This document shows, in pieces, positions 18,392 to 52,604 of a DNA stretch of 64,000 nt. Each line of letters begins with the position of its first letter. Position 1 is the stretch's first letter. The notes under the pieces are model-generated. The model searched no databases, was not told the origin of the DNA, and saw only the letters and a list, made by a program, of their open reading frames with translations. A program made the translations under genes and the position numbers. Source of the stretch: Candidatus Oxydemutatoraceae bacterium (lineage in GTDB: Bacteria; Pseudomonadota; Gammaproteobacteria; Poriferisulfidales; Oxydemutatoraceae); the NCBI GenBank assembly GCA_965237985.1, contig OZ250161.1:1615012-1679011 (forward strand). The letters run 5' to 3'.

Positions 18392-19380
18392 ATCTGGAGG
18401 GGGTTGGTGTGTGCGCCATGGCATTTTGAATAAAAATTTCCACCAGTATTTCCTACCTCTTCTGTGAAGATTCTGGGCTTTCCAAGTGTCTTTATGCCGT
18501 TCCTTGGTTTTTCACCTTCCGCTAAAGCTGGGGTCGCGCCCAAGTTGCCGTCCGTTGCCGTTTTCGGCAAAGACTTTTTGCCTGGTCTACCAAGTTGCCG
18601 CGCCCCTTTGCCAGTCTGAGCATAACGGTTTCGTGGCTGTCTCTCTGCCTGTTGCCAGCTGCGTCCCGAGGAAAGTCGACGTGTCGACATCGGCCCGGAA
18701 TTTTCCACCATCCGGCATGAACTCCCCGTCACCAGCCGCCACTCACCATCAAGTCTCCACGTCCTGTTCATTGGAAGCTTCTTCCGCTAAAGCTGGGGTC
18801 GCGCCCAAGTTGCCGTCCGTTGCTGTTTTCGGCAAAGACTTTTTGCCCTGTATGCCCAACTCTTCCAGTTTTTTTGCCTGGTCTACCAAGTTGCCGCGCC
18901 CCTTTGCCAGTCTGAGCATAACGGTTTCGTGGCTTTCTCTCTGCCTGTTGCCAGCTGCGTCCCGAGGAAAGTCGACGTGTCGCCATCGGCCCGGAATTTT
19001 CCATCATCCGGCATGAACTCCCCGTCACCAGCCGCCACTCACCATCAAGTCGCCACGTCCTGTTCATTGGAAGCTTCTTCCGCTAAAGCTGGGGTCGCGT
19101 CCAAGTTGCCGTCCGTTGCCGTTTTCGGCAAAGACTTTTTGCCCTGTATGCCCAACTCTTCCAGTTTTTTTTGGCCTGGCCTACATAAGTTGCCGCGCCC
19201 CTTTGCCAGTCTGAGCATAACGGTTTCGTGGCTTTCTCTCTGCCTGTTGCCAGCTGCGTCCCGAGGAAAGTCGACGTGTCGCCATCGGCCCGGAATTTTC
19301 CACCATCCGGCATGAACTCCCCGTCACCAGCCGCCACTCACCATCAAGTCTCCACGTCCTGTTCATTGGAAGCTTCTTCC
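18392..19380. repeat. Composite repeat: a duplicate of the yajC 5' end and upstream region (18392-18520 copies 18175-18300), plus three extra ~299-bp tandem copies of the rmuC 3' end
   Basis: 'ttccgctaaagctggggtcgcg.ccaagttgccgtccgttgc' occurs at 18517, 18780, 19078 and 19378 (the last within rmuC). Minus-strand units encode 'GRPGKKSLPKTATDGNLGATPALAE', the rmuC C-terminus. 'ttctgtgaagattctgggctttccaagtgtctttatgccgttcc' occurs at 18243 and 18460. Confidence 0.85.
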
Positions 19381-20651
19381 GCTAAAGCTGGGGTCGCGCC
19401 CAAGTTGCCGTCCGTTGCTGTTTTCGGCAAAGACTTTTTGCCCTGTATGCCCAACTCTTCCAGTTTTTTTGCCTGGCCTACTAAGTTGCCGCGCCCCTTT
19501 GCCAGTCTGAGCATAACGGTTTCGTGGCTTTTGCAGGCCCGTTCCAGGTTTTTCCCCAAGTCTTTCGCAGACTCCAGGACGCCACTTACTTTATTGTAGA
19601 AAGACGCAGCCTGTCGCACAATTTTCTGGGTGTTCTCTTGCTGCTTGTGAGAGCGCCAGAGGTTTTCAATGATGCGTAAAGTCGGCATCAAGGTATTGAG
19701 CGTCACGAGTCCGACGCGCATTCGCAAAGACTCATCGAATAACGAGGAGTCTTCGTTCAGTGCCGCCGCCAGCGCGTTCTCCAAGGGCACAAACATGAGA
19801 ACGAAATCCAGCGAGTGGACCTGCGGCAGGTCTTGGTAGTTTTTCGCGGCCAGGTCTTTGATATGTTTGCGCATGGCTGCCAGGTGTGCTTTCAGGCATT
19901 TGCTTTTGGCCTCCTCGTTTTTTGCCTCCTGGGCGTTCAGGTAGTCGACCATATTCAGTTTTGAATCGATGATGACCTGGCGGTCAGTCGGCAATTCAAT
20001 CACTATGTCTGGGCGTAACAGGGTGCCGTCTTCGTTGCGATAGCTTTTCTGGGCGTGATAATCCACGCCTTCCTGCAGCCCTGCGGCTTCAAGGATGCGT
20101 CCCAGCTGCACTTCCCCCCAACTGCCTCGTACCTGCGGTGACCGACGCAAGGCGCTTACCAGCTCCTGCGCTTCGTGCGCCAGGGATTCATTTATTTCAC
20201 GTACGTTTTTCAAACCTTCAACCAGCGTGGTGCGCTCCCGGGTAGTTTCATGTCCTTGTCGTTCCAGTTGTTCGCGAAACTGCTGAAACGCTTCCTGAAG
20301 TGGTTTTACGGTGGCATTGAGTTCGCTTTTCCCACGTTCGGCGTAACGGCTGTCAAGCACCTTCATGCTTTTCAAAGTCGCCTGTTCGAGCCGCGCGTCG
20401 AGGGACTGTTCATGTTCTTGGTAAATTTGCGTGCGGCTTTCCAGTCGTGCGCACTCTTCACGTTGCAACTGATGCGCTGCACGTTCTTTTTCCAGTTCCG
20501 ATTGCTCGTGGCGAAGCTGCGTTTCCTGTTCCCGACACAAGGTCTCCACCTGCTTGCGTTTCTGTTGTTCCATTTTGTGTTTGTGCACGAAAAACATTGC
20601 CCCGATAGCGCCCCCCGCACCAGCGCCGAGCAATAAATAGATCACTTCCAC
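19344..20651 (-). CDS. rmuC: DNA recombination protein RmuC
   Basis: N-terminal TM, long coiled-coil region, C-terminal RmuC nuclease-like domain ('DFVLMFVPLENA'). 435 aa. Confidence 0.85.
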   Translation of the reverse strand: MEVIYLLLGAGAGGAIGAMFFVHKHKMEQQKRKQVETLCREQETQLRHEQSELEKERAAHQLQREECARLESRTQIYQEHEQSLDARLEQATLKSMKVLDSRYAERGKSELNATVKPLQEAFQQFREQLERQGHETTRERTTLVEGLKNVREINESLAHEAQELVSALRRSPQVRGSWGEVQLGRILEAAGLQEGVDYHAQKSYRNEDGTLLRPDIVIELPTDRQVIIDSKLNMVDYLNAQEAKNEEAKSKCLKAHLAAMRKHIKDLAAKNYQDLPQVHSLDFVLMFVPLENALAAALNEDSSLFDESLRMRVGLVTLNTLMPTLRIIENLWRSHKQQENTQKIVRQAASFYNKVSGVLESAKDLGKNLERACKSHETVMLRLAKGRGNLVGQAKKLEELGIQGKKSLPKTATDGNLGATPALAEEASNEQDVET

Positions 20652-20850: not shown

Positions 20851-22089
20851 CTAGGGTTCTTGCCGACTTTCCCCGGTAGGCTTCATCGGCGGCAGGGTCT
20901 GCTTCCCTCTCGTGTGCTCGCTCTGCCTGAGTAGTGCCCAGCGGACGTGCTCGCGCACCAAGGGTGAGGAGTGGTTCGTTCTACTGCGCAACGCCTGAGC
21001 CACCTTTTTGCTGCGCGGCGCGTTGCCGAGCCCCACGGCAAGATTGCGCAGCCAGCGTTCGTAACCCAGTCGGCGCAAAGTGCTGCCACGCGTCCGGGCA
21101 GCAAAGTCTTTTTCATCCCAGTCCCAGAGAGACAGCAAAGTCGCAGCGTCCAGTCCCTTGCGCACCTGGAAAGCAGTTTCTTCGCTGGTTTTCGCAAAAC
21201 GGTTCCAAGGGCAGATGGTCTGGCAATCGTCGCAGCCGAAAATACGATTGCCGATCAACGGTCTCAGTGTTTCCGGGATAGTCCCTTTGTGCTCGATAGT
21301 GAGGTAAGCGATGCAACGACTTGCGTCCAACCGGTATGGTGCGATGATGGCACGGGTCGGACACACATCCAAGCAGCGTCGGCAACTGCCACAGTGGTTT
21401 TTTGCGGGACGGGAAACGGGGAGCGGGAGGTTGGTGTAGAGCTCGCCGAGAAAAAACCACGAACCCACACGGCGATTGAGCACCAAGGTGTTTTTCCCAA
21501 TCCAGCCCAAACCCGCTTGTTCGGCAATGGCTTTTTCCATGACCGGGGCACTGTCGCAAAAAGCTCGGTAATGAAAAGTTCCGGCGGCCTGAGTAATTTT
21601 GTCAGCGAGTTTCTGCAAACGTTTGCGTATCAGTTTGTGGTAATCACCACCAAGTGCGTAGCGGGCAATCTGTGCCAGGTCGGAAGCGTCTTCGTCGAGG
21701 CCATGACCGGCAACCCCGGGCGGCAAATAATTCATCCGTACTGAAATGATGGTTAGGGTTCCGGGCATCAGTTGTGCCGGACGCGTACGCTTGGTGCCAT
21801 GTTTTTCCATGAATGCCATGTCGCCGTGCATGCCATCGCGCAACCAATTCAGCAGGCGACTTTCGTGTTCGCCGATGTCTGCGTGACTGATTCCGGTCGC
21901 CTGAAAGCCCAGCTCGCTTGCCCACCGCTTGATTCGTTGCACCAGTCTTCGCAGCTTCGTTGTAGCAAGCGAGGTGTCGCCTGACACGCTGGTTTGGTGA
22001 GTTGGCGAACCGCGGGTTTTCACGCTGGCCTGGTTGGTTAGCGGGTCGCGGGCTTTCACGCTGACCTGTGGCAAGTCATGGGCTTTCAT
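20851..22089 (-). CDS. queG: Epoxyqueuosine reductase QueG (start uncertain; N-terminus overlaps an in-frame 66-bp repeat)
   Basis: 'RIKRWASELGF', 4Fe-4S ferredoxin cysteines 'CGSCRRCLDVCP' and 'CDDCQTICPWN', HEAT-like C-terminus. The conserved part begins near 'TTKLRRLVQRIKRW'. The upstream 50 aa are repeat-encoded. Confidence 0.8.
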   Translation of the reverse strand: MKAHDLPQVSVKARDPLTNQASVKTRGSPTHQTSVSGDTSLATTKLRRLVQRIKRWASELGFQATGISHADIGEHESRLLNWLRDGMHGDMAFMEKHGTKRTRPAQLMPGTLTIISVRMNYLPPGVAGHGLDEDASDLAQIARYALGGDYHKLIRKRLQKLADKITQAAGTFHYRAFCDSAPVMEKAIAEQAGLGWIGKNTLVLNRRVGSWFFLGELYTNLPLPVSRPAKNHCGSCRRCLDVCPTRAIIAPYRLDASRCIAYLTIEHKGTIPETLRPLIGNRIFGCDDCQTICPWNRFAKTSEETAFQVRKGLDAATLLSLWDWDEKDFAARTRGSTLRRLGYERWLRNLAVGLGNAPRSKKVAQALRSRTNHSSPLVREHVRWALLRQSEHTRGKQTLPPMKPTGESRQEP

Positions 22090-22520
22090 GCTGTTTGGTT
22101 GGCGAACCGCGGGCTTTCACGCTGACCTGCGGCGAGTCATGGGCTTTCATGCTGGTTTGGTTGGTTAGCGAACCGCGGGCTTTCATGCTGGCCTGGTTTG
22201 GTTGGTTGTGGCAAGTCATGGGCTTTTGCTGGTTTGGTTGGTTAGCGAACCGCGGGCTTTCACGCTGACCTGTGGCAAGTCATGGGCTTTCATGCTGACC
22301 TGTTGGTTAGCGAACCGCGGGCTTTCATGCTGGCCTGTGGCAAGTCATGGGCTTTCATGCTGGCCTGGTTGGTTAGCGGGTCGCGGGCACTCATGCTGAC
22401 CTGTGGCAAGTCATGGGCTTTCATGCTGACTTGCGGGGAGTCATGGGCTTTCATGCTGGCCTGGTTGGTTAGCGGGGCGCGGGCTTTCACGCTGGCCTGC
22501 GGCGAGTCATGAGTTTTCAC
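21960..22520. repeat. Tandem 66-bp repeat, about 8 units, in frame with queG on the minus strand, encoding (MKAHDLPQVSVKARDPLTNQAS)n
   Basis: Alternating 'gacctgtggcaagtcatgggctttcatgctg' and 'gcctggttggttagcgggtcgcgggctttcacgct' units between 22021 and 22520. Every unit carries an in-frame ATG on the minus strand. Confidence 0.85.
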
Positions 22521-26155: not shown

Positions 26156-26341
26156 GTGTCAGTGCAAAGTATCTTGTGCTGGAAACCTGGTTACGGTGGC
26201 GGCACGGAAAATTCGCATTTCGGGCAACCGAAAATGACGACAGCAGAAAATGCCAGGCTGAAAAATTTGTTGGCTGACATTTCACTGGAAAAAGTAGTGC
26301 TGGGGGATGTGCCGGGGGATGTGCTGGGGGAAAAGCGGTAA
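26156..26341 (+). pseudogene. Remnant of an IS3-family (IS2/IS407-group) transposase OrfA C-terminus
   Basis: 'TAENARLKNLLADISLEKVVLGDV...EKR*' matches the conserved OrfA ending (ENxRLKxLVAxLSLDKxxL). No intact orfB or inverted repeats follow. It sits at the left edge of the accessory island. Confidence 0.5.
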
Positions 26342-26639: not shown

Positions 26640-29600
26640 ATGAAGAAACAGGAAAAGATTGGGATCCGTTCACGTTTGCAGAAACTTTCGACCCTCAATG
26701 GCGAGGATGAAATCCGTTCGGAAGTTGGTGAATTGTTCGAGCTTCTCGGGCTGCCGGACAAGAGCCTTCAACACCGGGTTGGCAGATGGTTCGCAGATCT
26801 GGTTTTTTACTCTGCTCGTTTGGTCATTGAGACCAAAGCCCGTGGCAAAGTAAATCCTGAGGATAGAGGGAGCGGACTTGACGAGACCCAGAAAGGGCAG
26901 CTGGCACGCTATCTTGAGAAACTGACTGCAAAAGAAATTTCTCCCTCTGACCAGCCATGGCGCGGCGTCTTGACCGACGGGGAAACCTGGCATGTCTACG
27001 AATGGAACACAAAGTCCCATCCGGGCCGTGAGAAGAGTGGGCCTCGTTCCTCTCGCGTTGCCGAACCTAGGCCGTCTTTGTATGGGTGGAATGATGAACG
27101 GATGCGCGAGATTCGTCCAAAATTTCAGTTTCAAGCCAAGCATAACGGGCGTGCCGAGAGCTTCATTGAATTTTTTCGCCAATACCTTGCTCCTGAAAAA
27201 CGCCGGGGAAAACCTGCTCCCCCGTCGGATTTGGGGACCTCGGTGCTCCAGCCTTTTTTTCATGATTTAGCACAACTTGCTGAGAACGCCGAAGGAGATC
27301 CGCATTTCAACACGAAGTTTCGGGTTTGGAAAAGCGTCCTGAAGGGGGCCGGGCTGTTGCCGCCGGAGGGCATGGTCTCACGTACCCGCAGGTTGTTCCG
27401 GGAACATACGGCACTGGTCGTTACAGCCAGGGGCATTCTCAATGCGATGGGAAAAACAACTCAGCGTGATGCCGGCTTGGACCGAGACTTGAACAGTGGC
27501 TTTGTGTCTTGGTTGCAGGAGGTCACTGGGGGGGCAGAACGTACCCGGCAGTTGTTTCAGGATCTCGAAAAGTACGAATGGCGCGGTACCACCAGAGATG
27601 TGATGCGCACCGCCTACGAGCAATTGATCAAGGCAGAAGATCGCAAGGAATTCGGCGAATACTACACTCCAGATTGGCTGGCTACTGCCGTCTGCGAGGA
27701 CGTTTTGGATGTGGACTGGTTGAACCACGCCTTGGCCGCTGCCCGGCAGGCGCTCACGAGCCGAAGAGCCAGAGAATCTCGGATAGAACCCCTGCTGGGG
27801 ATCGGTGTGTTGGATCCGGCTTGTGGTTCGGGAACCTTTCTGTTCCATGCGGCGCGCCGAATTGTAGACCATGCAGTTCGGGAACGTGGGTTTTCCCCTA
27901 AAGAAGCTTGCCATGCTGCAGCCATTCTGGTTCATGGCATGGATATCCACCCGGTAGCGGTGGAAATGTCACGGGCGGTTTTGCGCACTGCCCTGCCCGA
28001 CCTGGACGATCAGGATGCAGAGCACTTGTCGGTTTACGTTGGCGATTCCCTGCAGACTGACGAGTTTCAGAGTGGAACCCTTTTGGGCAAAGATACAGTC
28101 TATGTTCAGTCCACAAAAGATCATTCCATTGAAATTCCACGTGATCTGTTGAGCCGACCGGATTTTTCCGTGCTCATTGAATGCCTGGTCGGTGCCGCGT
28201 TAGAAAAAGAACCGCTGAACTTGTGCGAATTTGAGATGGACAAGAGTCTGGAAAAGAAATTGCAGATTGCCTATCGGGCGCTCAAGAAAATTTGTCGGGA
28301 CGAGGGCAATCATGTTTGGGCTTGGAAAATTCGGAATACAGCGAAACCGCTGCAATTGACTGGATCAGGAGTTGACCGTCTGATTGGGAATCCTCCCTGG
28401 ATTGTGTCGAACGATACCCCGGAAGGAGTACGCAAGCAGGCGTTCAAGGAAATGACAAAGGGCTATGGACTTCGAGACCCGAAGCTGCACAGAAGTTCCG
28501 CGAAAGGCGATCTGGCAGCTTTATTTGCGGTGCGTGCCATTGATTTGTATTTGGCGTCGGGTGACGGTCGCAAGGGCGGAGGCGGGGTAGCGAAGCGTTT
28601 TGCCTTTGTTTTGCCTGGTTCTGCCCTGATCAACCAAGTATGGAGACCTTTTCGCACTGGGAACTGGCAAGGAAAGCAACACAGAGTGGAAGCGACTCTG
28701 GAAACTCCGTGGGATTTGGGAGGGGTCAAAGAAGCACCTTTTCCACATGCGCCGAACCAGGCGTGCGTGGTTCGGGGGTACTTGGGGGCAGCGCAACAAC
28801 TTCCCAAGGCGATTTTCTGGAAGGCAAGCGACGTGGAACTTGAGCAAGACTGGGAGACTGCGCGCAGACTTATCCGACAAAGTTCCGGATCTGAAGCCTT
28901 CCCTGAGCCGAAGGCAAGCCTGTATGTGCGCGAATTTCATCTCGGTGTGATGTTGAGGCCACTGTGCCTGGGACTGACGACCGATTGGGAAAGCCGTGGA
29001 GATCTGATCCGATTCACCACTTACCGTTCCACGAAGGGACCTTGGAAAGGGAAACAGTACAGAGGCGAAATGGAAGCAGAAGCGACACATTCACTGTTGC
29101 GTTCCCAAACGCTTCGCGCTTTTCGTGCTCTCCCGGACGCATTGCTGCTCGCTCCGTTGCGCGACGAGTCCATCGCGGATTTGGAAACCTGGCCCAAGGC
29201 TTGGTTGCCCAAGGCCCGCAAGTGGTTTCGGGAACATGAAAAAGTCTTCCAGAAATATCGTAGTTCGAAGTCTGCTCCTTCGCTACTGGGGAATATTAAT
29301 TGGAAGAACACCTTCACACGGCAGTATCTACGAGCTTTGAAATCGCCCAAGGCACTGCGCAAAGTTGTTTATAACGCGTCAGGGAGCTCGCTTCGTGCCG
29401 CGCGTGTTGTACTTGGTTTGGCGGTCAATGCGAAGTGTTACTACGCAATACTGACAAGCGAGAAAGCAGCAGCTTACCTTGTGGCCACATTGAACGCACC
29501 GTGTCTATTGCCGGCTTGGAACCATTACAAGACAAGCAGGCTGGATTACGATTTGAACCCTTTGCGAAGCGTGCCGGTTCCTGTTTTTGACAAAACTGAC

Positions 29601-29747
29601 GAACTGCACCTGGATTTGGTGGGAGCCTGCCTGGCAGCCGAACAGGCGGTGGCCCAAAGCAACTCGGCCAAAGATGAGATCCCTCATGAGATACTTGAGC
29701 GGATTGACCGTTGTGTGCGTAGCTTGCTCAAGGAATATGTTCAGTGA
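26640..29747 (+). CDS. Type IIL/IIG restriction-modification enzyme, MmeI family (endonuclease plus gamma-class N6-adenine methyltransferase plus target-recognition domain, one polypeptide)
   Basis: N-terminal 'FADLVFYSARLVIETKARGK' matches the MmeI nuclease motif (D-x10-E-x-K, compare MmeI 'FVDLFWPGILLIEMKSRGK'). MTase motif X 'FGEYYTPDWLA', motif I 'VLDPACGSGTFLFHAARRI', motif IV 'LIGNPPWIV'. Followed by about 450 aa of TRD. 1035 aa. Confidence 0.8.
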   Translation: MKKQEKIGIRSRLQKLSTLNGEDEIRSEVGELFELLGLPDKSLQHRVGRWFADLVFYSARLVIETKARGKVNPEDRGSGLDETQKGQLARYLEKLTAKEISPSDQPWRGVLTDGETWHVYEWNTKSHPGREKSGPRSSRVAEPRPSLYGWNDERMREIRPKFQFQAKHNGRAESFIEFFRQYLAPEKRRGKPAPPSDLGTSVLQPFFHDLAQLAENAEGDPHFNTKFRVWKSVLKGAGLLPPEGMVSRTRRLFREHTALVVTARGILNAMGKTTQRDAGLDRDLNSGFVSWLQEVTGGAERTRQLFQDLEKYEWRGTTRDVMRTAYEQLIKAEDRKEFGEYYTPDWLATAVCEDVLDVDWLNHALAAARQALTSRRARESRIEPLLGIGVLDPACGSGTFLFHAARRIVDHAVRERGFSPKEACHAAAILVHGMDIHPVAVEMSRAVLRTALPDLDDQDAEHLSVYVGDSLQTDEFQSGTLLGKDTVYVQSTKDHSIEIPRDLLSRPDFSVLIECLVGAALEKEPLNLCEFEMDKSLEKKLQIAYRALKKICRDEGNHVWAWKIRNTAKPLQLTGSGVDRLIGNPPWIVSNDTPEGVRKQAFKEMTKGYGLRDPKLHRSSAKGDLAALFAVRAIDLYLASGDGRKGGGGVAKRFAFVLPGSALINQVWRPFRTGNWQGKQHRVEATLETPWDLGGVKEAPFPHAPNQACVVRGYLGAAQQLPKAIFWKASDVELEQDWETARRLIRQSSGSEAFPEPKASLYVREFHLGVMLRPLCLGLTTDWESRGDLIRFTTYRSTKGPWKGKQYRGEMEAEATHSLLRSQTLRAFRALPDALLLAPLRDESIADLETWPKAWLPKARKWFREHEKVFQKYRSSKSAPSLLGNINWKNTFTRQYLRALKSPKALRKVVYNASGSSLRAARVVLGLAVNAKCYYAILTSEKAAAYLVATLNAPCLLPAWNHYKTSRLDYDLNPLRSVPVPVFDKTDELHLDLVGACLAAEQAVAQSNSAKDEIPHEILERIDRCVRSLLKEYVQ

Positions 29748-30099
29748 ATATCGTCGGTGACACAGTCTCCCCATGACATGTTTTCGTATTGTTTAGAGCG
29801 AGGAAAGCAATCTCCACAAGAACCAGAAATGGTTCCCCACCGTGCTTCGGAACAAGATCTTTTTTTATGACATGGTTTTCAAAAAGTATCCCTCAAATAA
29901 GATACATTTGAGGGTATCCGCAGGGGAGTGAGGCATTTTTTGTTTTTGGACATCCCTGCGGCTGCTTGAAGAGTTTTGCAGTTCCGGTATCGCTCAGGTC
30001 AAGTCTCAGGGCAATGCACTTCAATGTCGCCTCGCCCATCTCCCAGCTCGAAGCTCCTAAGCCGCCACGCTGAAAAATTTCTTGCGACCGCCAGTCATC

Positions 30100-30205
30100 G
30101 GTCTCGCCTGTTCAGGGGCCACGAAATTGGGTGGCTTGTTCCCCAATGTCTACGTGCCTGCCTGTTCAGGGGCCACGAAATTGGGTGGCTTGTTCCCCAA
30201 TGCTC
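30100..30205. repeat. Direct repeat, two copies, 54-bp period ('cctgttcaggggccacgaaattgggtggcttgttccccaatg')
   Basis: Exact 42-nt copies at 30107-30148 and 30161-30202, in the 850-bp spacer between the RM gene and the ImmA-like gene. Confidence 0.8.
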
Positions 30206-30605
30206 AAGATATTCAGACCCCAGTCATTTGTGGTACTTTCGGTTGCCCAACTCCGAAAACTGCGCGCTTCCGTCAACCCCCTCGGTTTCCTGGTGTGTTT
30301 TGACTAGACGGCTTGTTATTTGAAGCGAATGTTCCCGCAAACCAGTGCAGAACATGTACGTCTGGCTCAGGGTTTCTCAGTTTTGTTGCATCAGTATGCT
30401 ACAGTTCGTGCGTCCAATTTACCTTCCAGTTTGCCTATGCTTTTATATAGGTTTGTTAGTTTTCCCATCTCTAGTTTTGTGCTCTTTTATCCCTTCCGCG
30501 CCAGCGTCCACTTTCGTGTCAAGACTTCCCAGATAGAACACCCCCCCTCCCAGAACCACCAAAATTCCAAGTGCCTTTTATGTGTAATTCCCATTGTTTT
30601 AGAGC

Positions 30606-31844
30606 GTGACAATGCCTCGGATTCTTGAAAAAATTTCGCCGTGCACCATGAAATGGGCGAGAGTAGATGCAGGCTATCGGACTATCGAGAGAGCCGCCAA
30701 AAAATTATGCCAAGCTGCGGAAAGAATCAGAGGATGGGAAGAGGGGAAGAAGCTTCCTACGGCAGCTCAGCTCAGAGAAGTCGCCAAGACGTACCACCGG
30801 CCGATTTGCTTCTTTTATCTAAAAGAAGTTCCTGAACAGTTCAAGATTCAAAGGCCCGTGGACTTTCGACACCTGTCTTCGGATGTTCACGAACGCTGGA
30901 CTCCCAACCTGATGTTGATGATCAGACAGGCACATGACCGGCAGGACTGGGCGCGCGAACTGTTGGGTGATGAAGCGGGAAGCCAGAATTGGGTCGCCTC
31001 CGTCGACGAAGGAAGCGATCCTAAAGCACTCGCTAAAAAAATACGAAATTGGCTGGGGATCTCTGAACAGAAACAGCGAGGGTTTTCCAATCCGGGGGGT
31101 TTTCTCAATGAACTGGTCCGCCTTGCCGAAAACAGGGGAGTCTTTGTTTCTCGTCATCGGCCCGACCAGAACAGATACCGGTCTATTGAGCCCGAAATAT
31201 TCAGAGGAATCGCGCTCAAAGATGCTGTCGCTCCTTTGGTGGTGATTAATCCAAAAGATGCAATCAGAGGGCAAATTTTCACTCTGCTTCATGAGCTGGC
31301 GCATTTGTGGATGGATGCACCCGGGCTGTCAAATCGAGAACCAGATAAACGAGAAGATACTAGAAACAGAAGAATTGAAGTTGCCTGCAACCGCATTGCC
31401 GCGCAGGTCTTGATGCCAAAGAACTGGTTTCTGGCCGAGTGGAAAAAGTGTTCCGGCCTCTCGGATGATGCTATGAGAATAAAGGAGGTTGCTGGAGTTT
31501 TTTCAGTCAGCAGAGAAAGTGTTGCACGGCGGCGGCTTGACGAGGGTGAAATTACTTGGAATCAGTACATTGAATTTCGTAAAAGGTACCAGGAGGATTG
31601 GCGAGCAGAAAAAGCGAGAAAAAAAGAGCAGGCTTCTCAGAAGTCAAGATTTGGAGGTATGGCGAGCGGGTTGCGCATCTGTTTGGAAAACGGGAAAAAG
31701 CTGGCCCGTCTGGCTTTGGAGAACTATCAAGATCAGGAAATAAGCGCCATCGAGGTTTCTCGAGCACTGAACATGAAAGTCGCACATCTTGGGAAGCTTG
31801 CAAAAGCGGTTGACATTGATCTGCCTGACTGGCGGGATGTATGA
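30606..31844 (+). CDS. HTH_XRE-family regulator fused to an ImmA/IrrE (DUF955, COG2856) zinc metallopeptidase domain
   Basis: N-terminal HTH ('AAKKLCQAAERIRGWEEGKKLPTAAQLREVAKTYHRPICFFYL'). HExxH motif 'LLHELAHLWMD' about 220 aa in. 4-nt ATGA overlap with the next gene. Confidence 0.8.
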   Translation: MTMPRILEKISPCTMKWARVDAGYRTIERAAKKLCQAAERIRGWEEGKKLPTAAQLREVAKTYHRPICFFYLKEVPEQFKIQRPVDFRHLSSDVHERWTPNLMLMIRQAHDRQDWARELLGDEAGSQNWVASVDEGSDPKALAKKIRNWLGISEQKQRGFSNPGGFLNELVRLAENRGVFVSRHRPDQNRYRSIEPEIFRGIALKDAVAPLVVINPKDAIRGQIFTLLHELAHLWMDAPGLSNREPDKREDTRNRRIEVACNRIAAQVLMPKNWFLAEWKKCSGLSDDAMRIKEVAGVFSVSRESVARRRLDEGEITWNQYIEFRKRYQEDWRAEKARKKEQASQKSRFGGMASGLRICLENGKKLARLALENYQDQEISAIEVSRALNMKVAHLGKLAKAVDIDLPDWRDV

Positions 31845-32365
31845 CTGAAGAAGGCTTAGAAACAGAGGAGCCAGTTTATTGCATTGATTCATCAAGCCTG
31901 ATAGCTATGTGGAAAGAGAGATATCCGAAAGAGGTTTTTCCTTCCTTGTGGGAGAACAAGCTAAGAGGGCTCGTGAAATGCAGGCTTGGGGTGTGCAAAC
32001 AAGTGTGGCAGGAAATTGACCACCCGGACTTAAAAGAGTCTCTTTCCAAGATGGGGTTGGACGAAGGACATCTCTTGCCTGAATGCCAAGACCTAAAAAA
32101 CAGGGTCGCGGAAATTATAAACAAGCATCCCGCATGGGCCAAGGGAGATGGGGGAAGAGAAGTGGCTGACCCGTATATCATTGCCTTTGCAAAAGAGCAG
32201 GGTATGGTGGTTGTAACAGAAGAGTTGCCCTTTGATAAAACAAAGCCAGGGGCGGAGAGGAAAAGAAGAAGTTCTGGCCCCAAGATTCCTGATGTCTGCA
32301 AAGAAATGGGTGTTGAGTATATGACCCTGCTGAGTTTGTTCAGAAACGAGAGGTGGAAATTTTAG
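31841..32365 (+). CDS. DUF4411-family protein (predicted PIN-like nuclease fold), second gene of a two-gene module with the ImmA/IrrE gene
   Basis: 174 aa. Acidic residues placed like PIN catalytic positions ('YCIDSSSLI', 'VWQEIDH', 'VADPYIIAFA', 'VVTEE'). Translationally coupled to the upstream gene. The family name is from memory. Confidence 0.65.
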   Translation: MTEEGLETEEPVYCIDSSSLIAMWKERYPKEVFPSLWENKLRGLVKCRLGVCKQVWQEIDHPDLKESLSKMGLDEGHLLPECQDLKNRVAEIINKHPAWAKGDGGREVADPYIIAFAKEQGMVVVTEELPFDKTKPGAERKRRSSGPKIPDVCKEMGVEYMTLLSLFRNERWKF

Positions 32366-33149
32366 CCGGGCAGGAAGTGAGGTGTCCTTGGTTTTTGCTA
32401 CAGAACGTTATCCGAAAGGGTATTTCGAGTGCTTGTTAACGCCGCCTGATTCCTCCTGTTCAGTTCTTTATCCGACGGCTCGACAGCTTGGCCGGTCAGG
32501 TGGATTTTCTCAGGTCTCCAAGTAGCAAGTGATTGGCGGATGCTTTTGCTGTGAGTTTCACAGATGGATTCCAAACTGGCGAGAAAAGGTGGCTGAATGG
32601 CGTTTGATGACCTGCCAATGCCAGAGTACACGGAACAACTAGATGGCATAAATTCACTGGGCGAGATAGCGACATCAGCATTCACCGGGAAGCGAAAATG
32701 TCGCCAGGCTTTCGCACATTGAAGCAGGACTTGATTCAAAAAGCAGTTCAGTGTGGTGACCGGGTGCCGGGTTGTAGGCTTGTTGTTTGCTCCTGCTTGT
32801 TCATGGGTGGCGCCCCTGTTCGGTTGATGTTTGTTCCTGTCGTTATCAATGTCGGCTTCAGTGTGTCAGTAATGGGGGTTGAAGTTATGTTCACACAGAT
32901 TTTGACAGTTGCGTTTTCTCGCGTCATCTGTGTTATAGTCGGGAACCCGTTTTGGCGGCGAAGTGGTGAGGGTTGCGTCCGGGGGTTGGTTGGGTCTTTC
33001 GGTGTGGGGTCTCCCATGCTATGGGGGCTCGCTTTCAGGTTCACCGGTGGTGAGCCAAGGCGCACTCGAGGAACGGGTTTGCCGCAGTATGGACAGTGAA
33101 CGCTGGTCGGGGATGCGTTCGCTTACAGTTTATTCAACAGCGAGGTCTC

Positions 33150-33668
33150 GATATGTATGCAGTAGATCAATTGCTCAAGGAATTCGGAGAAGAGGTCGGG
33201 ATTCCAGAGCTGGTTTTTGATGAGGAAGGCTACTGTACGCTTTCCTTTGACGACACGATTGTCACGCTTTCTAAAAGGGAAAATCAGGAAAGGCTGGTTT
33301 TCTACGCCGACGTGGGGCTTTTGCCTACGCCTCCTCCCAAGGACATTCTGCTGGGATTGCTGGAAGCGAATGCATTGCACAGAGCTGTTGGTGATGGTGC
33401 CATCGGGATTCATACTGATGAAAGCCATAACATGACCATCGTGGTTTATTCCTTGTTATTGCGGGTCGCCAACATCGATAAGGCTGTTTTTGAATCCGCC
33501 CTGAAAGAGTTCATTGAAATTTCTGAAGTTTGGACAAAACACTTGGCGGATGCCGACAAGAAATATATTTCAAAAGATGAGGAAGACAAGAAATCCGGTG
33601 GTGGGAAGGGAGATGCCGTCGAAAGTACCGGTGGTGCTGCCCCAGGTGGCGGCGGAATGAGAGTTTGA
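33150..33668 (+). CDS. Type III secretion chaperone-like / YbjN-family protein with a Gly-rich acidic C-terminal tail
   Basis: 'MYAVDQLLKEFGEEVGIPELVFDEEGYCTLSFDDTIVTLSKRENQERLVFYADVGLLP' has the class I T3SS chaperone/YbjN pattern. Start at the internal Met 33150 rather than 33096. Confidence 0.55.
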   Translation, partial: DMYAVDQLLKEFGEEVGIPELVFDEEGYCTLSFDDTIVTLSKRENQERLVFYADVGLLPTPPPKDILLGLLEANALHRAVGDGAIGIHTDESHNMTIVVYSLLLRVANIDKAVFESALKEFIEISEVWTKHLADADKKYISKDEEDKKSGGGKGDAVESTGGAAPGGGGMRV

Positions 33669-35876: not shown

Positions 35877-36983
35877 TCACAGTATTCGTGTGTTTTGTTG
35901 GTGTTCGAATTCGAAAATGCAGTCAGTCAAGGTCTGGCTTTTGATGGCGTTGCGGACGGTTTTCAGCAGATTTTGGTAATAGTGCAGATTGTGAAAAGTA
36001 TTCAGTATGGGGCCGAGCATTTCGTTGCTGTGGTCGAGGTGGTTCAAATAGGCGCGGCTGAAATGCTTGCAGGTATAGCAGGCGCAGTCAAGGTCAACGG
36101 GGCGCAGGTCTTTCCGGTATGCGGCATTGCCGATTTTCAATATGCCGCGACTGGTGTACAGGAACCCGGTTCGGGCGTTTCGAGTTGGAATGACGCAATC
36201 AAACAGATCCACACCATGACGTATTGCGGTTAGCAGGTCTTCGGGCCGGCCGATGCCCATCAGGTAGCGCGGCTGGTTTTCTGGCAGCAAAGGCAAGGTG
36301 TCGGCGAGCACCTGCACTCGTGTTTCGGCGTCTTCGCCGACTGAAAGGCCGCCGATCGCATATCCGTCAAAAGCCATATCGCACAGCATTGCCGCTGAAG
36401 TAGCGCGCAGGTCGGTGTACATGCCGCCCTGCACAATGCCAAAGATTGCCGAATCGACGCCGGCATGTGCTGCTTTGGATCGGGCTGCCCAGCGCATGGA
36501 ACGCTGCATGGAAGCTTCCGCGACTGCTTTGCTGACGGGATGCGCAGTACACTCGTCGAATGCCATGGTGACATCGCTGCCAAGTGCTATCTGTACGGCG
36601 ACGGAACGTTCCGCATCCAGCAGAAATTCCTGGCCATTCAACGGCGAGCGGAAACAGGCACCACGCTCAGTAACCCGGCAATGTTTCCCGAGACTGAAAA
36701 CCTGATAGCCGCCCGAATCAGTCAGAATCGGCCCGTCCCAGCCCATGAATGCATGCAGGCCACCGGCATCACGGATAATGTTTTCGCCCGGGCGCAACAT
36801 GAGGTGGTAGGCGTTTGCCAGGATCATGCGCGCTCCGCTTTCGACCATCATTCTGGGAGTCAGCCCCTTGACGGTAGCCTGTGTTCCCACCGGCATGAAA
36901 GCAGGCGTCGGGACGGTGCCGCGCGGGAAACGCAATTCCCCGGCGCGCGCCTGACCGCAGTGACTGTCAACGTGAAACTGCAT
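35877..36983 (-). CDS. tgt: Queuine tRNA-ribosyltransferase (tRNA-guanine transglycosylase)
   Basis: 'RGTVPTPAFMPVGTQATVKG', 'LTDSGGYQVFSL', zinc site 'CACYTCKHFSRAYLNHL'. Start at 'MQFHV', Met 5 of the ORF. Confidence 0.9.
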   Translation of the reverse strand: MQFHVDSHCGQARAGELRFPRGTVPTPAFMPVGTQATVKGLTPRMMVESGARMILANAYHLMLRPGENIIRDAGGLHAFMGWDGPILTDSGGYQVFSLGKHCRVTERGACFRSPLNGQEFLLDAERSVAVQIALGSDVTMAFDECTAHPVSKAVAEASMQRSMRWAARSKAAHAGVDSAIFGIVQGGMYTDLRATSAAMLCDMAFDGYAIGGLSVGEDAETRVQVLADTLPLLPENQPRYLMGIGRPEDLLTAIRHGVDLFDCVIPTRNARTGFLYTSRGILKIGNAAYRKDLRPVDLDCACYTCKHFSRAYLNHLDHSNEMLGPILNTFHNLHYYQNLLKTVRNAIKSQTLTDCIFEFEHQQNTRIL

Positions 36984-37255
36984 GGTTTTTCTCAATTACA
37001 CGTGGTGTCTTTGAAATGGTAAAAGCAGCGTTCAAGCCTAAAGGTTTGTTGCGGTGTGTGCAGCGCAGGTGTTTGCCAGGATCATGCGCGCTCCGCTTTC
37101 GACCATCATTCTGGGCGTTAGCCCCTTGACGGTAGCCTGTGTTCCCACCGGTATGAAAGCAGGCGTCGGGACGGTGCCGCGCGGGAAACGCAATTCCCCG
37201 GCGCGCGCTTGGCCGCAGTGGCTGTCAACGTGAAACTGCATGGTTTTTCTCAATC
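36790..37255. repeat. Tandem duplication, two ~230-bp units, of the queA 3' end-tgt 5' end junction
   Basis: 36813-37020 is nearly identical to 37067-37275. The second copy yields the ORF 37038..37346, a tgt N-terminal fragment ('MQFHVDSHCGQARAGELRFPRGTVPTPAFIPVGTQATVKG...'). Confidence 0.85.
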
Positions 37256-38271
37256 CACATGGCGTCCCCGAAACTGTAAAAGCGATATAGGTTCGTAATG
37301 GCGTGTTCATAAGCCGCACGCATTTTTTGAAGGCCAGCAAACGCACAAACCAGCACGAAAAGCGTGCTGCGGGGCAAATGAAAATTGGTGATCAGTGCAT
37401 CCACAACTTTGAAAGCATAACCGGGGCGTATGAAGAGGTTGGTTTCACCGCTTTGTGGCAGCAGCTCTCCGGTGGTGTCGCAGGCAGCTTCCAATGTGCG
37501 CAAGGCAGTGCTCCCAACCGCGATGACTTTTCCTCCTCGAGCCCGACACGCGGCTATTTCCGCGCTGGTTTTGGCGTTCAGTATAAAGCGCTCACTGTGC
37601 AAGTGGAGCTGCGTCAGACTCTCGGACCGCAAAGGCTGAAAAGTTCCTGCACCGATGTGTAAAGTGATATTTGCCATGCGGATCTCGCGGTCGGCGAGTT
37701 TGCGGAGCAGCGCTTCGTCAAAGTGCAAACCGGCGGTCGGGGCTGCGACTGAACCGGGGTTCCGCGCATAAACAGTCTGATATCTTTCCCGATCCATACT
37801 GTCCGTGGCGCGTTTGATGTAGGGGGGCAACGGGACTTTTCCAGATTGGTTCAGAAGTGATTCCATGGTTTCATCAGCGGCGGTTTCGATCACGTAGAAT
37901 TGGCTTTTGCTCAGGGACACAACACGCAAATGGGCACCATTATTGAGTGTAAGGATGGTGTTTTCCCGTACCCGATTGCTGGCGGAAAGAGAACAGTTTG
38001 CCTGGCGGTCGTCGAGGATGCGTTCAATGAGAATTTCCACTTTCCCGCCGCTGCTTTTGTGTCCATGTAAACGTGCGGGGATGACTTTGCTGTCATTGAA
38101 CACCAGCAAATCGCCAGACGACAGGAGTTGTGTGACCTGATGGAAGCGAAGGTCGTGGAAAGTGTTGTTGCCTTCGGGAACGTGCAACAGACGGGCAGCG
38201 GTGCGCTGTTCGGCAGGATAGTATGCAATTCGCTTCTCTGGAAGCGTGTAATCGAAATCGCTGGTTTTCAT
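37225..38271 (-). CDS. queA: S-adenosylmethionine:tRNA ribosyltransferase-isomerase
   Basis: 'MKTSDFDYTLPEKRIA' N-terminus and 'GDAMW' C-terminus. I trimmed the ORF to Met 13. Confidence 0.9.
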   Translation of the reverse strand: MKTSDFDYTLPEKRIAYYPAEQRTAARLLHVPEGNNTFHDLRFHQVTQLLSSGDLLVFNDSKVIPARLHGHKSSGGKVEILIERILDDRQANCSLSASNRVRENTILTLNNGAHLRVVSLSKSQFYVIETAADETMESLLNQSGKVPLPPYIKRATDSMDRERYQTVYARNPGSVAAPTAGLHFDEALLRKLADREIRMANITLHIGAGTFQPLRSESLTQLHLHSERFILNAKTSAEIAACRARGGKVIAVGSTALRTLEAACDTTGELLPQSGETNLFIRPGYAFKVVDALITNFHLPRSTLFVLVCAFAGLQKMRAAYEHAITNLYRFYSFGDAMWIEKNHAVSR

Positions 38272-38309: not shown

Positions 38310-41300
38310 GAATTCATGGTGGAACGCAGCGGTGTCTGAGCGACCGGAAAGTATCGTTTCCCGTGGTCACGGCACAATGGGCTTGCGGTCATGCATATTC
38401 CGGAAGTCAGACCATCCGGTACCGAGTGGTTGCGCAAATCCGGCATCATACTTTTGACTGTCATCAGTTTCTTTTGGACATTGGCATTCATGGTGGAACG
38501 CAGCGGTGTCTGAGCGACCGGGAAATATCGTTTCCTGCGGTCACGGCATAATGGGTTTGCGGTCATGCGTATTCCGGAAGTCAGACCATCCGGTACCGAG
38601 AGGTTGCGCAAATCCGGCATCATACTTTCGGCAGCCATCAGTGTCTTTTGGACATTGGCATTCATGGTGGAACGCAGCGGTGTCTGAGCGTTCGGAAAGT
38701 ATCGTTTCCCGTGGTCACGGCATAATGGGTTTGCGGTCATGCATATTCCGGAAGTCAGGCCATCCAGTACCGAGAGGTTGCGCAAATCCAGCACTACATT
38801 TTCGGTAGTCATCAGTGTCTTTTGGACATTGGCATTCATGGTGGAACGCAGCGGTGTCTGAGCGACCGGAAAATATCGTTTCCCGTGGTCACGGCATAAT
38901 GGGCTTGCGGTCATGCATATTCCGGAAGTCAGACCATCCGGTACCGAGGGGTTGCGCAAATCCAGCACTACTTTTCGACTAGTCATCAGTTTCTTTTGGA
39001 CATTGGCATTCATGGTGGAACGCAGCGGTGTCTGTGAGCGACCGGAAAGTATCGTTTCCCGTGGTCACGGCATAATGGGTTTGCGGTCATGCATATTCCG
39101 GAAGTCAGACCATCCGGTACCGAGAGGTTGCGCAAATCCGGCATCATACTTTTCGACAGTCATCAGTTTCTTTTGGACATTGGCATTCATGGTGGAACGC
39201 AGCGGTGTCTGAGCGTTCGGAAAATATCGTTTCCTGCGGTCACGGCATAATGGGTTTGCGGTCATGCGTATTCCGGAAGTCAGACCATCCGGTACCGAGA
39301 GGGTTGCGCAAATCCAGCACTGCATTTTCGGCAGTCATTAGTGTCTTTTGGACATTGGCATTCATGGTGGAACGCAGCAGTGCCTGAGTGAGCGACCGGA
39401 AAATATCGTTTCCCGTGGTCACGGCATAATGGGCTTGCGGTCATGCGTATTCCGGAAGTCAGACCATCCGGTACCGAGGGGGTTGCGCAAATCCGGCACA
39501 TATTTTCGGCAGTCATCAGTGTCTTTTGGACATTGGCATTCATGGTGGAACGCAGCGGTGCCTGAGCGTTCGGAAAATATCGTTTCCGTGGTCACGGCAT
39601 AATGGGGTCGTGGTCATGCGTATTCCGGAAGTCAGACCATCCGGTACCGAGAGGTTGCGCAAATCCGGCATCATACTTTTGACTGTCATTAGTTTCTTTT
39701 GGACATTGGCATTCATGGTGGAACGCAGCGGTGTCTGAGCGACCGGAAAATATCGTTTCCTGCGGTCACGGCATAATGGGTTTGCGGTCATGCGTATTCC
39801 GGAAGTCAGACCATCCGGTCACCGAGAGGGTTGCGCAAATCCAGCATCATTTTCGGCAGTCATCAGTGTCTTTTGGACATTGGCATTCATGGTGGAACGC
39901 AGCGGTGTCTGAGCGTTCGGAAAATATCGTTTCCTGCGGTCACGGCATAATGGGTTTGCGGTCATGCATATTCCGGAAGTCAGACCATCCGGTACCGAGG
40001 GGGTTGCGCAAATCCGGCACTGCATTTTCGGCAGTCATCAGTGTCTTTTGGACATTGGCATTCATGGTGGAACGCAGCGGTGTCTGAGCGACCGGAAAGT
40101 ATCGTTTCCCGTGGTCACGGCATAATGGGTTGCGGTCATGCGTATTCCGGAAGTCAGACCATCCGGTACCGAGGGGTTGCGCAAATCCGGCACTGTATTT
40201 TCGGCAGTCATCAGTGTCTTTTGGACATTGGCATTCATGGTGGAACGCAGCGGTGTCTGAGCGACCGGAAAGTATCGTTTCCTGTGGTCACGGCATAATG
40301 GGTTTGCGGTCATGCGTATTCCGGAAGTCAGACCATCCGGCACCGAGAGGTTGCGCAAATCCAGCATCATACTTTCGACTGTCATCAGTTTCTTTTGGAC
40401 ATTGGCATTCATGGTGGAACGCAGCGGTGTCTGAGCGACCGGAAAGTATCGTTTCCTGCGGTCACGGCATAATGGGTTTGCGGTCATGCGTATTCCGGAA
40501 GTCAGGTCACCCTTCACAGAGGGGTTGCGCAAATCCGGCACTGTATTTTCGGCAGTCATCAGTGTCTTTTGGACATTGGCATTCATGGTGGAACGCAGCG
40601 GTGCCTGAGTGAGCGACCGGGAAATATCGTTTCCTGCGGTCACGGCATAATGGGCTTGCGGTCATGCTATTCCGGAAGTCAGGCCATCCGGTACCGAGGG
40701 GGTTGCGCAAATCCGGCATCATACTTTCGGCAGTCATCAGTGTCTTTTGGACATTGGCATTCATGGTGGAACGCTTGAGCGACCGGGAAATATCGTTTCC
40801 TTGGCACAATGGGTTTGCGGTCATGCGTATCACAGAGGGGTTGCGCAAATGGCACTATATTTTCAGCAGTGTCTTTTGGACATTGGCATTCATGGTGGAA
40901 CGCAGCGGTGTCTGTGCGACCGGAAAGTATCGTTTCCCGTGGTCACGGCATAATGGGCTTGCGGTCATGCGTATTCCGGAAGTCAGACCATCCGGTCCGA
41001 GAGGTTGCGCAAATCCGGGATTTTCAGGAGGCCAGGGGGTTGCGCAAATCCGGCATCATACTTTTGACTGTCATCAGTTTCTTTTGGACATTGGCATTCA
41101 TGGTGGAACGCAGCGGTGTCTGCGACCGGAAAGTATCGTTTCCTGCGGTCACGGCATAATGGGTTTGCGGTCATGCGTTTCCGGAAGTCAGGCCATCCGG
41201 TACCGAGAGGTTGCGCAAATCCAGCATCATACTTTTGACTGTAAGTTTCTTTTGGGCATTGGCATTCATGGTGGAACGCAGCGGTGCTGATGAGCGTCCG

Positions 41301-42950
41301 GAAAATAGGTCACGGCATAATGGGTTTGCGGTCATGCGTATTCCGGAACCGAGAGGGGGTTGCGCAAATCCAGCACTGTATTTTCGGCACTGTTGAACAT
41401 TGGCATTCATGATGGAACGCAGCGGTGTCTGAGTGATCGGAAAGTATCGTTTCCTGTGGTCACGGCATAATGGGTTTGCGGTCATGCGTATTCCGGGTCA
41501 GACCATTACCGATGATTGCGATACGCAGCATTAGTTTCTTTTGAACATTGGCATTCATGGTGGAACGCAGCGGTGTCTGTGCGACCGGAAAATATCGTTT
41601 CCCGCGGTCACGGCATAATGGGTTTGCGGTCATGCATATTCCGGAAGTCAGGCCATCCGGTACCGAGAGGTTGCGCAAATCCGGCACTATATTTTCGGCA
41701 GCCATTAGTTTCTTTTGGACATTGGCATTCATGGTGGAACGCAGCGGTGTCTGAGCGACCGGAAAGTATCGTTTCCTGCGGTCACGGCATAATGGGTTTG
41801 CGGTCATGCGTATTCCGGAAGTCAGGCCATCCGGTACCGAGAGGTTGCGCAAATCCGGCACTATATTTTCGGCAGCCATCAGTGTCTTTTGAACATTGGC
41901 ATTCATGGTGGAACGCAGCGGTGTCTGTGCGACCGGAAAGTATCGTTTCCTGCGGTCACGGCATAATGGGTTTGCGGTCATGCGTATTCCGGAAGTCAGG
42001 CCATCCCTTCACCGAGGGGTTGCGCAAATCCGGCACATATTTTCGGCAGCCATCAGTGTCTTTTGGACATTGGCATTCATGGTGGAACGCAGCAGTGCCT
42101 GAGTGAGCGTCCGGGAAATATCGTTTCCTGCGGTCACGGCATAATGGGCTTGCGGTCATGCGTATTCCGGAAGTCAGGTCATCCAGTACCGAGAGGTTGC
42201 GCAAATCCGGCATCATACTTTCGGCAGTCATCAGTGTCTTTTGGACATTGGCATTCATGGTGGAACGCAGCGGTGTCTGTGCGACCGGAAAGTATCGTTT
42301 CCTGCGGTCACGGCATAATGGGTTTGCGGTTATGCATATTCCGGAAGTCAGGCCATCCAGTACCGAGAGGTTGCGCAAATCCAGCACTACATTTTCGGTA
42401 GCCATCAGTGTCTTTTGGGCATTGGCATTTATGGTGGAACGCAGCGGTGTCTGAGCGACCGGAAAGTATCGTTTCCCGTGGTCACGGCATAATGGGTTTG
42501 CGGTAATGCGTATTCCGGAAGTCAGGTCACCCAGTACCGAGAGGTTGCGCAAATCCAGCACTACATTTTCGGTAGCCATCAGTTTCTTTTGGACATTGGC
42601 ATTCATGGTGGAACGCAGCGGTGCCTGAGCGACCGGAAAGTATCGTTTCCCGTGGTCACGGCATAATGGGTTTGCGGTCATGCATATTCCGGAAGTCAGG
42701 TCATCCGGTACCGAGGGGTTGCGCAAATCCGGCACTATATTTTCGGCAGTCATCAGTTTCTTTTGAACATTGGCATTCATGGTGGAACGCAGCGGTGTCT
42801 GAGCGTTCGGAAAATATCGTTTCCTGCGGTCACGGCATAATGGGTTTGCGGTAATGCGTATTCCGGAAGTCAGGTCACCCTTCACAGAGGGATTGCGCAA
42901 ATCTGGCACTACATTTTCGGTAGCCATCAGTTTCTTTTGGACATTTTGTT
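38310..42950. repeat. Tandem array of ~176-bp units, about 26 copies, each copying the murJ 5' end (about 90 nt) plus about 85 nt of upstream sequence
   Basis: 'ttttggacattggcattcatggtggaacgcagcggtg' recurs about every 176 bp from 38474 to 42945. The last unit diverges from genuine murJ immediately after 'ttttggacatt'. Plus-strand frames give '...RKSGTTFSVAISVFWTLAFMVERSGV*'. Confidence 0.9.
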
Positions 42951-51653: not shown

Positions 51654-51659
51654 CACTAA

Positions 51660-52140: not shown

Positions 52141-52604
52141 ACCCCACCCAAGACCTGTAAAGCACCAACAGCCCGCTGTCCGCACAACCCCTTCCCCGCG
52201 CGGCTCACTTTTACAGACAACACTCCCAACCTACAACGCGCCACCAGAAAATTCCCCAAAATCTAAAGCAAAGTGAGCGTATCCCCCGCCAAAGCCAGTC
52301 CGGGCCGTGGCAGGGGCTAATAAATCTGTCAGATGAGGAGGATGCCAGAGGCTGCCGATGCTGAGGAGGATGCCAGAGGCTGCCGATGCTAGAGACCGCT
52401 CCTGACAAAAATCGCCTTTCGGATTCTTTCAAATGTCACCTGATAGAGCTGCGGATTTTCCAGGTGCGTTGGTGTTGAGAAGCACGGACTGTGGTGTAGA
52501 GATGAGAGGTGATAAAAAAGGATTTCGTGTTGATAAATTGCAGATACAAAACACCTCAGCGGCATGTTTTTGGAAACCATTTTGGAATTCTTCCGATCAA
52601 CGTG

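Follow-up and report, generated by a model that had tools for sequence, protein, structure and literature searches.

A predicted VapBC52-like toxin-antitoxin module with a zinc-peptidase antitoxin and a DUF4411 PIN-domain toxin in a Candidatus Oxydemutatoraceae bacterium

Introduction

Here we describe a pair of overlapping genes in a stretch of 64,000 nucleotides (nt) of a Candidatus Oxydemutatoraceae bacterium (GenBank assembly GCA_965237985.1, contig OZ250161.1, positions 1,615,012 to 1,679,011), hereafter called the window. The upstream open reading frame (ORF A) encodes a protein that joins a helix-turn-helix (HTH) domain to a zinc peptidase of the M78 (ImmA/IrrE) type, and the downstream one (ORF B) encodes a DUF4411 protein. 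Very probably, the pair constitutes an intact type II toxin-antitoxin (TA) module of the VapBC52/RosmerTA-like class. This assignment is based on what was observed for the window pair itself: its homology and fold, the conservation of catalytic and cleavage-site residues, and the pairing and coupling of the genes. From the characterised homologue we infer tRNA targets, a 1:2 stoichiometry, a single-stranded DNA (ssDNA) trigger, self-cleavage and phage defence.

A preliminary description of this DNA had proposed that a coupled HTH-ImmA/IrrE protein controls a PIN-like effector as a TA or defence module. The PIN fold, the pairing of both genes in 77 of 80 loci and the homology to VapBC52 support this view. 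The same description took DUF4411 as uncharacterised and with no demonstrated function, which is out of date given three reports (PMC2701414, PMC5499597, PMC13273310). Makarova et al. (2009, PMC2701414) described COG2856-Xre fusions in operons with PIN toxins, Rv2515c being named among them. Later, Matelska et al. (2017, PMC5499597) listed DUF4411.1 as a PIN-like predicted toxin found downstream of fused DUF955-HTH genes. As cited in PMC13273310, Tandon et al. (Journal of Biological Chemistry, 2019) reported Rv2514c-Rv2515c as a functional TA system. Also, Singh et al. (Nucleic Acids Research, June 2026, PMC13273310) solved the VapBC52 complex (9vzy) and VapC52(D6A) (9vzz) of Mycobacterium tuberculosis Rv2515c/Rv2514c, and both codes are confirmed in their data-availability statement. 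In this sense, the window pair adds one more instance to a widespread family, which the papers of 2009 and 2017 had predicted and whose M. tuberculosis member was characterised in 2026. Its two genes can confidently be labelled a VapBC52-type TA (HTH-M78 antitoxin/DUF4411 PIN toxin) instead of "XRE regulator + DUF4411". The remaining novelty lies in a serine in place of a cysteine that dominates in the family, and in arrays of antitoxin genes with truncated toxins in sister genomes.

Organization of the gene pair

According to the ORF list and the raw sequence, ORF A extends over 30606..31844 (412 amino acids (aa) from a GTG) and ORF B over 31841..32365 (174 aa), both on the forward (+) strand, as are all the features of the module given below. 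The ATGA overlap mentioned in the preliminary description was found in the raw sequence at 31841-31844, where the stop codon of ORF A overlaps the start codon of ORF B, an arrangement that suggests translational coupling. The true start of ORF A is most likely the ATG at 30612, because this codon aligns with the start ATG of all close relatives and the copy in the database has 410 aa. The antitoxin gene would thus occupy 30612..31844; residue numbers of ORF A nevertheless follow the 412-aa frame from the GTG at 30606. Both ORFs are full length, without frameshifts or premature stops, and keep all catalytic and motif residues. The module is chromosomal and single-copy, and no further copies or remnants of either gene were found elsewhere in the 64-kb window.

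The toxin

ORF B matches DUF4411 (PF14367) end to end, with residues 13-174 aligned to positions 1-159 of the 159 of the Pfam profile (E=1.7e-24). A phmmer comparison with PDB sequences gave full-length matches to the DUF4411 chains of 9vzy and 9vzz (E=4.7e-11 to 9vzy_D), and in this alignment D16 of ORF B falls on the N-terminal Asp of VapC52 (D6). When the toxin was used in a word-indexed homologue search, only the toxin itself was returned; an exhaustive HMMER search was used instead and found 1229 cluster representatives at E<=1e-3. Across an alignment of 101 toxin sequences there is no variation at D16 (nt 31886-31888), E128 and P150, and at least 90% of the sequences keep E58 and D110. 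The acidic motifs that the preliminary description had compared with those of PIN nucleases correspond to D16, E58, D110 and E128, the putative catalytic residues.

The AlphaFold2 model of the toxin has a mean predicted local distance difference test score (pLDDT) of 91.3 and a predicted template modelling score of 0.86. Its PDB neighbours in Foldseek are VapC toxins and other PIN nucleases with a probability of ~1.0, including Rv0301, VapC11, PAE2754, FitB and HARP RNase P (entries 3h87, 6a7v and 1v8p among others). All the top matches are VapC or PIN proteins, and the fold of ORF B in the model is PIN; the comparison with PIN/VapC that had been suggested as a check gave no sign of a non-nuclease fold. 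The Foldseek PDB library is older than the release of 9vzy and 9vzz, and the relation to VapBC52 was scored by sequence homology.

The antitoxin

In agreement with the HTH and HELAH-bearing ImmA/IrrE domains initially recognized in ORF A, residues 208-309 match Peptidase_M78 (E=1.1e-14, Pfam). The HTH_3 match is borderline, at 23.3 bits over residues 16-68 where the cut-off is 23, and the HTH call is backed by the fold model and by structure matches. Over residues 13-403 ORF A aligns with residues 5-388 of the 393 of 9vzy chain A, an "HTH cro/C1-type domain-containing protein" (E=1.7e-36).

The antitoxin model (pLDDT 88.3) consists of a five-helix N-terminal domain, a disordered linker, the peptidase core and a four-helix C-terminal domain. 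The N-terminal domain, of XRE type, covers residues ~12-71 (30639..30818), with helices modelled at 12-21, 27-34, 38-46, 53-63 and 67-71. The C-terminal one covers residues ~354-401 (31665..31808), with helices at 354-362, 364-375, 381-387 and 392-401, and lies within the alignment to 9vzy_A. The sole long segment of low confidence, residues 80-96 (pLDDT <50), carries the linker motif D86-F87-R88 (30861..30869). This DFRHL stretch is aligned with DFRRL of VapB52, which contains the "FR" self-cleavage motif, and among 67 homologues the D is kept in 66, the F in 59 and R88 in all. Further invariant residues in these 67 sequences include H229, E230 and H233 of the zinc-binding and catalytic HELAH motif (residues 229-233, 31290..31304), the third zinc ligand E258 (nt 31377-31379) and C261. 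The spacing between HExxH and the downstream Glu is the same as in VapB52 (H216, H220 and E245).

Foldseek placed the antitoxin core next to IrrE (3dti), PprI with ssDNA (8sln), PrpR (6cz6/6d2s) and CapP (7t5t), which are the same structural neighbours that the authors of the VapB52 study list for their protein (IrrE, PprI-ssDNA, PrpR and CapP; PMC13273310). The neighbours of the N-terminal domain are ImmR, DdrO and C.BclI, and also the controller protein C.Kpn2I. Among PADLOC models, the antitoxin matches capP (E=3e-13, residues 210-312) and 13 RmrA models (best E=7e-13), together with a weak match to "Control_protein" (E=0.007).

Conservation of the pair across genomes

The antitoxin alignment was used as query in a neighbourhood scan of one genome per GTDB species. 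It yielded 80 confirmed loci, spread over many phyla (Planctomycetota, Bdellovibrionota, Acidobacteriota, Chloroflexota, Actinomycetota, Cyanobacteria, Bacillota and Pseudomonadota), and the best match was 34% identical. Profile hidden Markov models built from both alignments were then run against the six-frame ORFs of these loci. We found a DUF4411 match on the same strand and directly downstream of the antitoxin in 77 of the 80, and one of the three exceptions is a locus cut by a contig end. The survey of DUF4411 together with ImmA/IrrE genes that had been recommended earlier thus reveals a conserved neighbourhood; it was run from the antitoxin side, and the toxin-side context rests on Matelska et al. 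(2017, PMC5499597). In most of the 77 pairs the toxin homology starts at the antitoxin stop or within ~30 nt of it, and it starts later in pairs with a split or partly matched toxin. With a partial or split toxin match in 16 of the 77 pairs, decay seems to be frequent. The same gene pair is present on Methylorubrum and Leptospira plasmids, where it is annotated as "ImmA/IrrE family metallo-endopeptidase" or "XRE family regulator" plus "DUF4411 family protein", and both module proteins match PHROG families. The main comparative value of these data is that the antitoxin-toxin pairing is near universal across phyla, with an invariant FR motif and invariant zinc ligands.

The pairing also bears on another interpretation, in which the locus is a transcriptional switch and not a TA. 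Here the HTH-peptidase would regulate neighbouring genes such as that of a nearby restriction-modification (RM) enzyme, in the manner of ImmA/ImmR, IrrE/DdrO, CapP/CapH or the C protein of an RM system, and DUF4411 would be a regulated cargo nuclease. The resemblance of the N-terminal domain to ImmR, DdrO, C.BclI and C.Kpn2I, the IrrE- and CapP-like peptidase core and the "Control_protein" match are in line with such a role, and a three-component regulatory cascade was what Makarova et al. (2009, PMC2701414) first proposed. We consider it very improbable. No separate repressor gene was found, and a single polypeptide carries the peptidase, the HTH and the F-R site. The C-terminal domain that occludes the toxin in VapB52 is conserved in ORF A, and in the crystal structure of VapBC52 the antitoxin neutralises the toxin directly, at 1:2 (PMC13273310). 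Moreover, DUF4411 is the conserved partner while the RM neighbour is not, and there are no integrase or phage genes near the module.

Proposed mechanism and its limits

The mechanism that we propose for the TA module follows the work on VapBC52 (PMC13273310). As a tRNase, VapC52 cleaves its substrates in the anticodon or variable loop, and co-expression of VapB52 relieves the growth inhibition that it causes. One VapB52 binds a VapC52 dimer (1:2), for which its N-terminal domain is essential, and covers the active site with its C-terminal domain. When its M78 peptidase is activated by ssDNA, VapB52 cleaves itself near FR and loses the N-terminal domain in a reaction that requires HExxH, and the authors propose that this self-cleavage raises the level of free toxin. 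By analogy, ORF B may be a Mg2+-dependent PIN ribonuclease that would arrest translation by cutting tRNA anticodon or variable loops. The N-terminal HTH and the C-terminal helical domains of ORF A would clamp the toxin dimer and block its active site, and its central M78/IrrE-type zinc peptidase would serve as a built-in trigger. Once activated by ssDNA that results from damage to DNA or from phage replication, as described for VapB52, CapP and IrrE, ORF A would cut its own linker at F-R, lose the N-terminal domain and free the toxin. The outcome may be growth arrest or abortive infection, stabilisation of the locus, or both.

Several observations weigh against this reading. The identity between ORF B and VapC52 is low and their match, significant as it is, is distant (E=4.7e-11), so the RNA targets of the toxin may differ. 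Even at E up to 10, none of the PADLOC models matched the toxin. The region upstream of the window copy yielded no convincing sigma-70 promoter or operator, and it cannot be aligned with those of the closest relatives. As for phage defence, protection against D29 was obtained with the over-expressed toxin alone and not with the co-expressed VapBC52 pair (PMC13273310); defence by the intact system is thus unproven even for the reference module. Finally, C229 of VapB52, the "cysteine switch" capping the zinc when the protein is inactive (PMC13273310), is aligned without gaps from HExxH onwards to Ser242 of ORF A (nt 31329-31331), and therefore the auto-inhibition and trigger logic of VapB52 and CapP cannot apply unchanged to the window protein.

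This substitution is not restricted to the window copy. Of 67 homologues, 57 have Ser and one has Cys at the switch position, and among the 80 genome loci Ser is found in 60 and Cys in four. Judging from these alignments, only VapB52 and a minority of its relatives seem to have the cysteine switch, which would not define the family. The switch is also absent from some CapP homologues, and IrrE, which has no switch, is less tightly controlled (CapP preprint). With a Ser at this position, most members of the family, the window protein among them, are consequently more IrrE-like in that respect. A wider proposal is that most of the family including the window copy is regulated unlike the VapB52/CapP model, with a different trigger or extent of auto-inhibition (IrrE-like, zinc- or redox-dependent, or constitutively primed), and that the locus is a rapidly evolving hotspot in the host lineage; it seems to us rather unlikely. 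In any case, the 2026 VapB52 paper stresses a cysteine switch that only a minority of the family has, and caution is needed when its activation model is generalised.

Local surroundings and closest relatives

The RM enzyme that the preliminary description had placed next to the module is indeed present. It is a type IIG enzyme of 1035 aa (26640..29747, + strand; PADLOC REase_MTase_IIG, E=1.6e-47) with weak MmeI_N and N6_Mtase matches, and its gene lies 860 bp upstream of the module, outside it. The antitoxins of the closest relatives, found in ENA metagenome assemblies, are 64-66% identical to ORF A. Their genes share the syntenic position of the module, with amiB on one side and, on the other, a CesT-family gene followed by Memo/AMMECR1, tgt and queA, and the type IIG gene is absent from this site in all the closest relatives examined. 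The RM gene is present in the window and missing from the same site in the relatives, which points to its recent insertion. Since the relatives hold the module at this site without an RM gene, its adjacency is incidental and the module is autonomous; on this synteny, the idea of the RM gene and the module as one system was rejected. Just upstream of the RM gene, a short ORF at 26156-26341 (ENARLKNLLADISLEKVVL) resembled a fragment of an IS3-type transposase and has no Pfam match.

With these data, the hypothesis of a dedicated anti-phage abortive-infection system can be weighed. It would be RosmerTA-like and part of a defence island with the type IIG RM enzyme, and its protease antitoxin would sense infection and release the PIN toxin. 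It overlaps with the explanation that we prefer and differs from it in the primary role given to defence and in the link to RM. The many RmrA matches (E ~1e-12) and the capP match of the antitoxin fit this hypothesis, as do the defence against phage by RosmerTA systems with ImmA-type antitoxins, the RM gene upstream, the cleavage of phage D29 tRNAs by VapC52 (PMC13273310) and the base composition, with a G+C of 0.48-0.50 over the module versus 0.56-0.61 in the flanking yjeF-tsaE-amiB housekeeping genes. Nevertheless, the relatives carry the module without the RM gene, co-expressed VapBC52 gave no protection against D29 (PMC13273310), and the toxin lies outside the PADLOC models. We regard a primary defence role of this kind as possible, though somewhat doubtful.

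The small ORFs beside the module (29976-30628 and 32398-33099) have no Pfam match, so the TA module lacks a third component. Scans for promoters, terminators and repeats in 29700-33200 gave nothing above the shuffle expectation and no operator-like palindrome. In the spacer between the RM gene and the module there is a perfect 43-nt direct repeat (30106-30148 and 30160-30202, 54 nt from start to start), without a match in the upstream regions of the relatives. Directly downstream of the module, at 33096-33668 (+), lies the CesT-family gene, which resembles type III secretion chaperones and is kept in the relatives; it hints that the host, with a genome of ~2 Mb, is host-associated.

Three of the relatives (L002, L003 and L004) have tandem arrays of the module in ERZ25071281, at the same syntenic site, at 2237-9632, 2231-7765 and 1767-7298 of their respective sequences. 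These arrays contain 3-4 units of ~1.9 kb. In each unit ~200 bp of conserved sequence lie upstream of a full-length antitoxin gene, and the toxin gene is reduced to its first 60-70 codons; a full-length toxin is found only in the last unit of each relative. The antitoxin copies are mostly 80-99% identical to one another, with one outlier in L004 (L004a, 68-86%). The arrays, which may be an assembly artefact, would amount to amplification of the antitoxin with a single functional toxin. One explanation of such a pattern could be that antitoxin dosage or diversity is under selection, for instance as an escape from phage-encoded triggers or as a means to neutralise incoming toxins, and in this sense the antitoxin arrays of the sister genomes are a curiosity worth attention. 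In a fourth, single-copy relative (L001) the antitoxin is intact, and the DUF4411 gene (11240-11731) is broken by an in-frame stop at 11363-11365 into fragments of 41 and 117 aa, being probably a toxin pseudogene.

Decay of this kind raises the question of whether the window pair is itself a decaying or silent remnant, with genes intact by chance and no longer expressed or active. Most toxin copies of the closest relatives are truncated or interrupted, as by the stop in L001 or in the array units that keep residues 1 to ~65, and upstream of the window copy there is no good promoter match and a Shine-Dalgarno sequence weaker than those of the relatives. Even so, a remnant seems quite improbable: the window ORFs have kept their full length, every catalytic and motif residue and the ATGA coupling, free of frameshifts and stops, and the last unit of each array in the relatives retains a full-length toxin.

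Other features of the window were recorded as well. Long intergenic tandem-repeat arrays are unusually abundant (4853-6386, 8239-12048, 18575-19531, 22047-22519, 38312-42945 and 51434-52155), with units of 125, 220, 296, 30/66, 174 and 238 nt; the array of 174-nt units, of ~4.6 kb, comes right after queA. Repeats resembling them occur in L001 between yjeF and tsaE. Between queA and tgt, an ORF of 102 aa (37038-37346, -) looks like a partial duplication of the 5' end of tgt (35877-36995, -), of which it repeats the N-terminal ~60 residues almost exactly. A bacterial class A RNase P RNA is encoded at 7676-8010 (-), with 303.8 bits.

Comparison with known systems

VapBC52 is the closest characterised system. 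Both modules have the antitoxin gene before the toxin gene with tight coupling, and both proteins align over their full length. The antitoxins share a three-domain organisation of ~400 aa, the FR linker motif and HExxH...E, and the DUF4411 PIN toxins share the four acidic residues, the C-terminal helix and the PKIPDVC region. The sequences are distant, however (E=1.7e-36 for the antitoxin and 4.7e-11 for the toxin), and the window pair is known from sequence and models. In addition, Cys229 of VapB52 is replaced by Ser242, the basic insert before PKIPDVC is longer in the window toxin (residues ~129-147), and the window host is not an actinobacterium and has a genome of ~2 Mb.

CapP/CapH and IrrE(PprI)/DdrO share with the window protein the M78 core with an adjoining HTH motif (7t5t, 3dti and 8sln). 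CapP cuts CapH at F82-R83 (CapP preprint), comparable with the D-F-R of the window protein, and IrrE and some CapP homologues resemble it in having no cysteine switch. In contrast to both systems, protease and substrate are in one chain in the window protein, and the predicted output of the window pair is release of a protein toxin and not derepression of an operon. Furthermore, the similarity to CapP is confined to the peptidase and HTH core (192 aligned columns in Foldseek); the window protein has no GAF-domain match, and no separate small HTH (CapH) gene is adjacent.

Zinc-peptidase-antitoxin systems were named RosmerTA and shown to be anti-phage by Millman et al. (2022). The association of ImmA with PIN proteins was noted by Ernits et al. 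(2023, PMC10440598), who found that the toxins of the RosmerTA class are interchangeable; the RmrT toxins that have been studied best belong to other kinds, for instance membrane-depolarising ones (PMC10440598). The window antitoxin, an ImmA-type zinc peptidase with an N-terminal HTH, matches many RmrA models, although moderately (E ~1e-12), and the window toxin differs in that it falls outside the PADLOC models. The window pair is RosmerTA-like in its logic, yet the 2023 PADLOC models would not call it. Automated defence finders of that age would miss it; PADLOC sees the antitoxin (capP, RmrA) and has no model for the toxin. The window pair also corresponds to the three-component TA systems predicted for DUF4411.1 and HTH-DUF955 (COG2856), from which it shows no substantive difference: it has exactly that architecture.

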